A stretch of 64,000 nucleotides of DNA, taken from assembly GCA_963804085.1 (NCBI GenBank), contig CAWDOQ010000022.1, positions 1 to 64,000 on the forward strand. Reading direction: 5' to 3'. The DNA is from Chlamydiia bacterium. GTDB taxonomy: Bacteria; Chlamydiota; Chlamydiia; Chlamydiales; Rhabdochlamydiaceae. The notes under the pieces are model-generated. The model saw only the letters and a program-made list of their open reading frames with translations, searched no databases and was not told the DNA's origin. Each line of letters begins with the position of its first letter. Position 1 is the first letter of the stretch. This document shows, in pieces, positions 5,329-7,144 of this stretch. The position numbers and the translations under genes were made by a program.

Positions 5329-5537
5329 ACAATTCTATCATACTGATAAGATACTCCGCATTTTTTTCCGTAAAATCACCGGGCTGAAAAATTTGACGCA
5401 AAATGCCCTGGGCGGTTTCTCAAAAAATCGCTGGGCAATTTTCGCGTGAAATTTACTGTAACCCACATGTACCTTGGTGCCTTGCTCCGGTGGCATTCGC
5501 TCAAGTCAATCCTCATTGCCCAGACTCCTAGATAGAA

Positions 5538-5584
5538 ATATATATATATATATAGATATATATATATATATATATATATAGATA
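5538..5584. repeat. (TA)n microsatellite, last eukaryote-type feature before the junction
   Basis: Directly visible. Confidence 0.95.
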
Positions 5585-5767
5585 GAGCGAAAATTCGCCG
5601 AGACGGAAAAAGTTCGTGCGTCGTCCTGGGTAAGTGTATGTTGCCTTCTCAAAGCAGTGCTTTTACTGTTAGCATTGTTAAACTACCGCAGGCGCATGGT
5701 CCACGGGTCCGGGCTGAAGAAATTGAAGAATGCCATGGCAATGTGTACACAAAGAATAGCAGGGCAA

Positions 5768-5953
5768 TTATCGGGAAAGACCCCCAAAAAATAACCCACA
5801 TGTGTAGGTTTGGTTGGCGTCTGGATGTCCTTCCTCAGGCCATTTGAAGTCAATGTAAAAATTGCCCCGCTTCTTTTTTTTAAGCCCTATCGCTAGAGCA
5901 ACGTAGGGTCGAATATCTCCATGTGAGCCAATGCAAAGAATACAAAATTTCAA
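5768..5953 (-). pseudogene. Truncated glycosyltransferase (GT-B, Glyco_transf_28 N-terminal / sterol-glucosyltransferase-like)
   Basis: MKFCILCIGSHGDIRPYVALAIGLK matches the GS(R/H)GD(V/I)xP.xAL motif. Similarity is lost after about 30 codons. Confidence 0.8.
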
Positions 5954-6118
5954 GCAAACCTCCAGGTGTGACTCGGAGTTCTAATATCTAAAATTTTAGA
6001 GAAACAAACACTTGTTTTCTTTCAAAAGATGCTCTCGAGGTATTTCATTTTAGCACAACTTTAGGTTGCTCGAAGGATGACAGTCGATTAAAATGACCTT
6101 TTTCACTCAGGAAATCTC

Positions 6119-7144
6119 ATGAAAAACTTCTTAGCAGCCCTAGCGATGATCCTACTCAATTGTGTCGCACCGAGCAGAGGTCACGCCATTTATCCCATAG
6201 AAGCGCCACGCACAGAAGGCCACCTTCAGGTATCTGAAAAACATCAGATTTTTTATGCGACCTATGGGAACCCGGGTGGCATTCCCGTCGTTGTTTTGCA
6301 TGGGGGACCGGGAATCGGATGCGCTGATTCCCTCTCTCGCTTCTTTGATCTTACGCAATGGTATGTGGTGATGTTCGACCAAAGAGGAGCTATGCGGTCA
6401 AAGCCATTTGCTTGCATGGAAGAGAATACAACACAGCACTCCATCGAGGACATCGAGGCATTGCGCAAACATCTTGGAATCACAGAGTGGGTTGTGTTTG
6501 GAGGGTCGTGGGGCTCTTGCCTGGCCATTGCATATGGAGAATTGCACCCAAAGGCCTGTTTGGGCTTTATCTTAAGAGGCGTATTTCTCGGACGCGACCA
6601 AGACATTCGCTTTTTTAAAGACCTGGGGCAAGGATTTCCAGAAGCCTACGAAAGGTTAATTAGCTATATTCCCCAAGAAGAGCGCTCTGACTTGCCTACC
6701 GCATGTTACCGAACAATCATCGATCCTGATCCTAACATACATATGGCCATGGCCCGAGCGATCATGGAGTATCAACTCGCAACTTCGATTCCTCCCCTAA
6801 GCCCTTCTTCCATAGAAGCGATATTGCAAAACGATCGCTTCAATCTCAGCTTCATCCGTGCTTTTTTGCATTACGCATACAATCTTTGCTTTTTACAACC
6901 CGATCAGCTGCTCTCTCAAATAGAGAATATCTCTCATCTTCCCGCGATCCTAGTACATGGATCTTGCGATACAGTCTGTTTTCCGGAACAAGCGCATTTA
7001 CTGCATCAAAAGTGGAGCAACAGCCAACTCTGGATAATCGAGGGAGCCGGTCACTCCTCTGAAGAACCAGCAATCGGATCTGCATTAGTTCAAGCCACAG
7101 ACGCCTTCTTAAAAAGTTTAAAAAATGAAGATTATGAGCAGTAA
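6119..7144 (+). CDS. pip: Prolyl aminopeptidase (proline iminopeptidase, alpha/beta hydrolase) with signal-peptide-like N-terminus
   Basis: HGGPG, FDQRG, GGSWG nucleophile motif, LRGVFL, and GAGHS. Confidence 0.92.
   Translation: MKNFLAALAMILLNCVAPSRGHAIYPIEAPRTEGHLQVSEKHQIFYATYGNPGGIPVVVLHGGPGIGCADSLSRFFDLTQWYVVMFDQRGAMRSKPFACMEENTTQHSIEDIEALRKHLGITEWVVFGGSWGSCLAIAYGELHPKACLGFILRGVFLGRDQDIRFFKDLGQGFPEAYERLISYIPQEERSDLPTACYRTIIDPDPNIHMAMARAIMEYQLATSIPPLSPSSIEAILQNDRFNLSFIRAFLHYAYNLCFLQPDQLLSQIENISHLPAILVHGSCDTVCFPEQAHLLHQKWSNSQLWIIEGAGHSSEEPAIGSALVQATDAFLKSLKNEDYEQ

Follow-up and report, generated by a model that had tools for sequence, protein, structure and literature searches.

The window analysed here is a stretch of 64,000 nucleotides corresponding to C22:1-64000, that is, it begins at the first base of contig C22. 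The contig is 105,416 bp long and comes from an assembly of 24 contigs totalling 2,133,167 bp (2.13 Mb), which is rated as 91.3% complete and 4.97% contaminated. The composition of C22 matches that of the other contigs, its far end (contig 105 kb) was bacterial by GC content and ORF cover, and no N bases were present anywhere in it. DNA of eukaryotic appearance was found at the start of the window, and since the window begins at C22 base 1, this part is a terminal tail rather than an interior flank.

The tail (1..5869) is a non-coding mosaic of GC-rich and AT-rich DNA with long microsatellites and two MITE-like copies. Its GC content swings between 21% and 70% within a few hundred bases, the GC-rich parts having 58-70% GC. 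Tandem Repeats Finder reported a (TTA)n microsatellite at 2344-2416, a (TATG)n microsatellite at 2424-2539, a (ACATACAC)n microsatellite of 581 bp at 4323-4903 and an (AT)n/(TA)n microsatellite of 23.5 copies at 5538-5584. Six of the seven perfect microsatellites of at least 30 bp in the entire 2.13-Mb assembly fell within C22:2450-4788. The MITE-like element, 265-280 bp long with inverted ends, was present at ~3440-3705 and ~5055-5335. Across window positions 1-4000, the stop-free frames all fell short of 200 aa, and the long open frames at 4242-4962, the sole long ones in that part of the tail, were translated microsatellite. Likewise, a Pfam search with nine ORFs from 875-4118 returned no match at E ≤ 0.01. 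The microsatellites, the MITE-like copies, the GC mosaic and the absence of genes fit eukaryotic nuclear DNA.

Several further searches were made with the tail. In Rfam, three sub-threshold matches to mir-297 were obtained on the (TATG)n and (TA)n tracts, the best at 49 bits versus a gathering score of 90, and were rejected as low complexity; no other Rfam match was returned for window 1-6200. A 19-nt motif from the MITE ends matched seven times in unrelated bacteria when genome contigs (596 Gb, both strands) were scanned. These matches were considered uninformative, the chance expectation for a 19-mer in a scan of this size being about four by our estimate. Neither a 40-mer from the eukaryote-like side beside the joint nor a 41-mer from the bacterial gene stub on the other side had an exact match in the metagenome contigs scanned.

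The first-pass annotation had let the eukaryote-like DNA end at the TA tract (5538-5584). This placement did not hold, as the tract lies inside DNA of this type. A direct repeat of ~100-160 bp has its first copy at 5379-5530, left of the tract, and its second copy at 5709..5869 in the same orientation (+), to the right. Three motif blocks in the first copy (5379-5396, 5421-5444 and 5459-5471) were found again in the second (5709-5726, 5750-5773 and 5793-5805), with a spacing of 329-334 bp. Because the repeat flanking the tract recurs on both of its sides, the eukaryote-like DNA passes the tract; with the ~100-bp block at 5379-5475 matched again at 5709-5810, it extends to at least 5810 and probably to about 5869. 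On the bacterial side, homology to the glycosyltransferases of related genomes ends at 5873. With the similarity to the eukaryote-like repeat reaching ~5869, the breakpoint is therefore placed at 5865..5873, adjoining a T8 run. Bacterial DNA does follow the tract, as had been annotated, but not after the proposed ~200 bp: the first bacterial base is at ~5873, 289 bp past the end of the tract, and intact genes begin at 6119. The junction itself was confirmed as gapless, with microsatellites on its left, bacterial gene families on its right and no N in the contig.

A truncated glycosyltransferase had also been predicted at ~5860, and the corresponding 5′ stub was located at 5873..5953 on the reverse strand. 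It consists of 27 codons with a TTG start and is of the GT28-N/MGT type. The match to Pfam Glyco_transf_28 was weak and under the family cut-off (profile positions 2-26 of 139, E = 0.002). In a search of 61 genomes, matches better than E 0.05 were obtained in only two. In these two genomes of the same family, the stub was 67% identical to residues 1-27 of ORFs of 422 and 427 aa, and the similarity was gone beyond residue 27. A tblastn search of the whole assembly, itself 91% complete, did not recover the remaining ~390 codons of the gene. Gene order in relatives was also considered. In one relative (G048), the genes preceding the full-length glycosyltransferase are syntenic with C17:184.6-188.9 kb and not with C22; in the other (G032), there was no useful synteny around the gene. 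The glycosyltransferase was also absent from beside the homologues of the first intact C22 gene in three of three relatives. Gene order is thus silent on what belongs to the left of 5873.

The first intact bacterial gene (6119..7144, + strand) encodes an alpha/beta hydrolase with a signal peptide. It resembles proline iminopeptidases (Pfam Abhydrolase_1, E = 2e-21) and has homologues with 56-61% identity in three relatives. Densely packed genes of ordinary bacterial families, by Pfam and NCBIfam, occupy the window from 6119 to its end. Besides the hydrolase there are GNAT, zinc ADH, an F-box protein, an LRR protein, apt, adk, class I FBA (aldolase), RlmI, RimO and OppABCDF, and further families include a Ser/Thr kinase-FGE-sulfatase-type fusion, a RodZ-like protein, RNase HIII, RecN, GatA, GatB and an RHS protein. 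All 38 window ORFs queried against NCBIfam were full open frames, with full-length gatA, gatB, recN, rnhC and oppABCDF among the ones that matched.

The segment 6119..11440 is a diverged segmental duplicate of C2:243063-247036, at 89-97% identity with indels, and the hydrolase copy on C2 carries an internal deletion equivalent to window 6180-6670. The sequence directly upstream of the hydrolase (6061-6123) also resembles a gene-upstream region on C2, which indicates that all sequence to the right of the stub is native bacterial DNA. Short repeats and this diverged paralogous block of 5 kb aside, no second copy of C22 was found within the assembly. Being single-copy in this sense, C22 is read as the bacterium's own chromosome, with its own gatAB, recN and other genes, and not as an extra nuclear copy.

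The assignment of the bacterial side to a chlamydia-like organism, made earlier from gene content, was supported. The 16S gene gave an exact match at C16:4376-4393 to the Chlamydiales probe Chls-0523, and the reversed control gave none; the probe is quoted, together with a general-bacterial competitor that differs from it by one mismatch, in PMC3741330. At least three full-length TLC nucleotide (ATP/ADP) transporters were present (three full-length matches and one split match in the assembly, against none in 14 control genomes), and genes for F-box, LRR and kinase-FGE proteins were found within the window. TLC transporters also occur in Rickettsiales and are therefore supportive of Chlamydiota, but not exclusive to it. 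A search for OmcB (Chlam_OMP6) was uninformative, with no match in the assembly and likewise none in any control genome. The start of C16 was itself tried as a candidate for a second eukaryote-like tail and rejected, as its ORF-free first 5 kb is a 23S-tRNA-16S rRNA operon.

Tetranucleotide profiling of the whole assembly in 2-kb windows (n = 1054) revealed 60 compositional outliers, 52 of which lay inside seven terminal blocks, all at contig ends. One of these is the start of C22 (1 to ~5860, 5.9 kb, 48.9% GC), with its eukaryote-like mosaic. The others are the start of C10 (1 to ~6650, 6.65 kb, 60.6% GC), the end of C10 (271478-278847, 7.4 kb, 70.8% GC), the start of C17 (1 to ~7045, 7.05 kb, 67.8% GC), the end of C17 (216242-235140, 18.9 kb, 65.6% GC), the start of C19 (1 to ~42868, 42.9 kb, 60.9% GC) and the end of C23 (~126480-147969, 21.5 kb, 67.1% GC). 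The six tails outside C22 thus have 60.6-70.8% GC, compared to ~47% for the core, and measure 6.7-42.9 kb each. They are fully covered by long ORFs, and the composition flips within tens of bases. Bacterial families on them include NuoE- and NuoF-type proteins, SDR, zinc ADH, Bac_export_1 and a luciferase-like monooxygenase. The seven tails add up to 110,189 bp. This is 5.17% of the assembly, for which the stated contamination is 4.97%.

Eight of the 60 flagged windows were outside the tails, and all of these but C4:1-2000 and C8:2001-4000 were inspected. An outlier at C10:12-16 kb was rejected as foreign DNA, since it proved to be a collagen-like gene of G-x-T triplet repeats. The outlier at C22:102-104 kb consists of internal tandem repeats, and those at C2:358-362 kb and C17:210-212 kb are AT-rich loci homologous to each other.

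Genes on either side of these joints are cut. The joint at the C10 start truncates a foreign Bac_export_1 gene (profile 4-128 of 230) and that at the C17 end a foreign luciferase-like gene (76-173 of 314). At the C17 start it is a chlamydial SBP_bac_5 gene (2-229 of 368), and on C19 a chlamydial MFS_1 gene (2-221 of 347). At the C22 joint, 27 of ~420 codons of the glycosyltransferase are kept. No sequence common to the tails, or to tails and core, was detected, and no linker or repeat common to the seven joints was conspicuous when the joint sequences were compared by eye.

Three of the six joints outside C22 are contradicted directly by overlapping contigs. The segment C10:269389-271477 equals C17:7149-9240 at 99.2% identity over 2094 bp (10 mismatches, four gap openings). 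Past 271477, C10 continues into 71%-GC DNA whereas C17 stays chlamydial; left of ~7150, it is C17 that consists of 68%-GC DNA whereas C10 stays chlamydial leftwards, at the place where C17 cuts its solute-binding-protein gene (SBP_bac_5) at profile position 229. In the same manner, C17:216090-216241 and C2:357761-357610 are identical on opposite strands but for one mismatch, and past 216241 C17 passes into 66%-GC DNA whereas C2 stays chlamydial. From these overlaps, the true chromosome runs C10 to C17 to C2. The joints at the C10 end, the C17 start and the C17 end are false, because in each case the overlapping contig continues as chlamydial DNA, and the foreign tails are caps that kept the contigs from merging. 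At base resolution, the joints on C10 and C17 showed no repeat common to both sides. The joints of C19, C23 and the C10 start were judged foreign from composition and cut genes only. For C22, the assembly contains no contig overlapping the chlamydial side of the joint. Redundant contig pairs with 98-99.6% identity (C1/C3, C7/C19 and C14/C10) were also observed and would fit a noisy or strain-mixed long-read assembly.

The C22 joint resembles the other six in being terminal, abrupt and gene-cutting. By analogy with them, we regard the C22 junction with high confidence as an assembly artefact, in which the contig end most likely incorporates a chimeric molecule or read; three of the other joints are disproved directly, and it is by their example that the C22 joint is condemned. 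On this reading, 5.9 kb of eukaryotic nuclear-type DNA present in the same library became attached to a genuine chlamydia-like contig end. Ligation or amplification would be the likely source of the chimeric molecule or long read, which the assembler may have used to extend the contig at a coverage break inside the glycosyltransferase gene. The same process would have capped the six other ends with 6.7-42.9 kb from unrelated high-GC bacteria, and nothing at the joint would be biological. Four of the tails are of similar length (5.9, 6.65, 7.05 and 7.4 kb), which would fit single long chimeric molecules. Several points can be set against this explanation. Unlike three of the other joints, that of C22 has no overlapping contig on its chlamydial side, and the missing part of its glycosyltransferase gene was not recovered from the assembly. 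The C22 tail is the only one that is eukaryote-like, as host DNA would be, and a recent insertion whose sequence had been collapsed with the identical sequence of a free symbiont could give the same contig picture.

Comparable features are found in metagenome-assembled or symbiont drafts with chimeric contigs or contaminated ends. The likeness lies in abrupt changes at a single base, cut genes on both sides, a restriction to termini, overlaps that contradict three of the joints, and a foreign fraction (5.2%) near the contamination estimate (4.97%). There is no substantive difference; the one special trait here is a tail of eukaryotic type among the seven, the other six being bacterial.

The first-pass annotation had left a choice between a chimera and a large insertion, of which the former was supported, by six other foreign tails with three of their joints disproved through overlaps, and the latter was not. 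Taken as an insertion, the joint would mark the recent entry of at least 100 kb of a chlamydia-like chromosome into a eukaryotic host chromosome, beside a region rich in microsatellites and MITE-like copies and with the breakpoint inside the glycosyltransferase gene. Such an event would account for the gapless joint sequence, for a bacterial side cut within a gene as expected of an inserted fragment, and for the rest of the glycosyltransferase being missing from the assembly; the DNA on the partner side resembles that of eukaryotes, the organisms in which chlamydiae live. Large Wolbachia insertions are known in arthropod and nematode hosts, and acceptance of such cases has been based on spanning reads, PCR, FISH or inheritance. 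The C22 joint is like them in setting endosymbiont DNA directly against eukaryote-type repetitive DNA, with no gap and a breakpoint within a gene. It differs in being known from assembled sequence alone, in that C22 carries the assembly's only housekeeping copy, and in that the same assembly joins this bacterium to unrelated bacteria. Several observations oppose an insertion. Only 5.9 kb separate the joint from a contig end, in an assembly that has high-GC bacterial tails of non-host origin at six other ends, three of them proven chimeric. The C22 genes examined are all intact and single-copy in the assembly, with no extra or decayed copy, and the composition of C22 is that of the other contigs. 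Moreover, the eukaryote-like DNA occupies one C22 end only, for 5.9 kb, and is not interior to a host-sized scaffold. We therefore consider a real insertion very improbable. If true, it would to our knowledge have no precedent as a large, Wolbachia-type insertion from a chlamydia; no report of one was seen among the 12 titles listed by a literature search.

An artefact made purely in silico, in which the assembler misjoined two genomes through a sequence common to both (repeat or k-mer collapse), was given similarly little credence. Weak inverted similarity was seen between 5858-5878 and both 5422-5442 and 5751-5769 (81% and 79% of ~20 nt, respectively), and the bacterial side next to the joint (6119-11440) belongs to a diverged repeat of the genome, a typical place for breaks in an assembly graph. 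However, similarities of ~20 nt that are imperfect and A/T-rich are compatible with chance, and the tails have no sequence in common with the core or with each other. A chimera at the level of the molecule or read is favoured over a graph misjoin because the base-resolved joints on C10 and C17 have no repeat common to their two sides. It is more improbable still, to the point of being barely credible, that the bacterial genome itself includes the 5.9-kb segment, as acquired eukaryotic DNA or an unusual non-coding island. Environmental chlamydiae do carry many eukaryote-like genes, among them the F-box and LRR genes of the window, but the tail has no genes or Pfam domains, is terminal and interrupts a bacterial gene, and microsatellites comparable to its six of seven occur nowhere else in the assembly. 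The preferred reading is a chimera at the contig end, and an insertion is not supported.

The window had also been taken to record a probable host-symbiont pair. This was not supported by the comparison with the other contig ends, where unrelated bacteria are joined to the same genome in like manner. Since the bacterium is likewise joined to at least two to three different high-GC bacteria, the tail indicates co-presence only: at most, the two DNAs went through one sequencing library together. The eukaryote-like tail may nevertheless be host DNA. Were the joint true, large symbiont-to-host DNA transfer would extend to Chlamydiota, and the joint would name the host. As it stands, foreign DNA makes up ~110 kb (5.2%) of this species-representative genome, of which 5.9 kb are of eukaryotic type and ~104 kb come from high-GC bacteria. 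In practical terms, the seven tails need trimming, and C10, C17 and C2 can be joined via their overlaps. Studies of gene content, horizontal transfer or host association based on this assembly would otherwise inherit false chlamydial genes, such as those of the Nuo and FliR types, and false chlamydia-eukaryote junctions.

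Six foreign terminal tails were found to cap chlamydial contigs of the whole assembly (GCA_963804085.1; its contigs are numbered C1, C2 and so on). All six are bacterial, ORF-dense and of high GC content (61-71%), and together they amount to about 104 kb. Two lie on C10 (1-6650 and 271478-278847), two on C17 (1-7150 and 216242-235140), and one each on C19 (1-42868) and C23 (126480-147969). Three of the six are proven to be chimeric, because the contigs C10 and C17, and likewise C17 and C2, overlap. Large contigs of the assembly were also partly duplicated by small ones at 98-100% identity, the pairs being C1/C3, C7/C19:339640-345937, C14/C10:253612-256081 and C14/C19:209439-210625. 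The small duplicates are redundant or strain-variant pieces.

Within the eukaryote-like tail of the window, a MITE-like element of 265-280 bp was present in two copies (3440-3705 and 5055-5335). The copies have their ends in common, and the first is bounded by a 19-nt end motif and its inverted partner. A candidate mir-297 at 2412-2562 was rejected as a microRNA, the Rfam matches being sub-threshold, of low complexity and located on a (TATG)n/(TA)n microsatellite.

In the chlamydia-like part, positions 6119-11440 hold a segmentally duplicated stretch of about 5 kb whose other copy is C2:243063-247036, the two being 89-97% identical. On C2, the alpha/beta hydrolase gene (its window copy is 6119-7144, plus strand) retains the signal peptide and lacks the counterpart of 6180-6670.

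The pkn1-like fusion named in the first-pass annotation lies at 35621-37282 (minus strand), where a Ser/Thr kinase carries an FGE-sulfatase/EgtB-type domain at its C-terminus. Elsewhere in the assembly, a very long collagen-like gene of G-x-T triplet repeats (C10:12453-15679) has an open frame of 876 aa that includes a signal peptide, and is a compositional outlier. An RHS/YD-repeat protein of 1529 aa (window 56557-61146) is followed by small ORFs and by two 545-bp units (61949-62490 and 62617-63163) with a mutual identity of 86%. The small ORFs and these units may together represent alternative toxin-tip and immunity cassettes arranged in an array.

Palindromic hairpin elements composed of GTGCCC/GGGCAC-type hexamer repeats were found in the gatA-gatB intergenic region (53005-53082), at 42578-42609 and at C16:5180-5290. 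Runs of at least two hexamers numbered 114, spread over 15 of the 24 contigs, which suggests that the hairpins make up a family of REP-like intergenic repeats in this genome.
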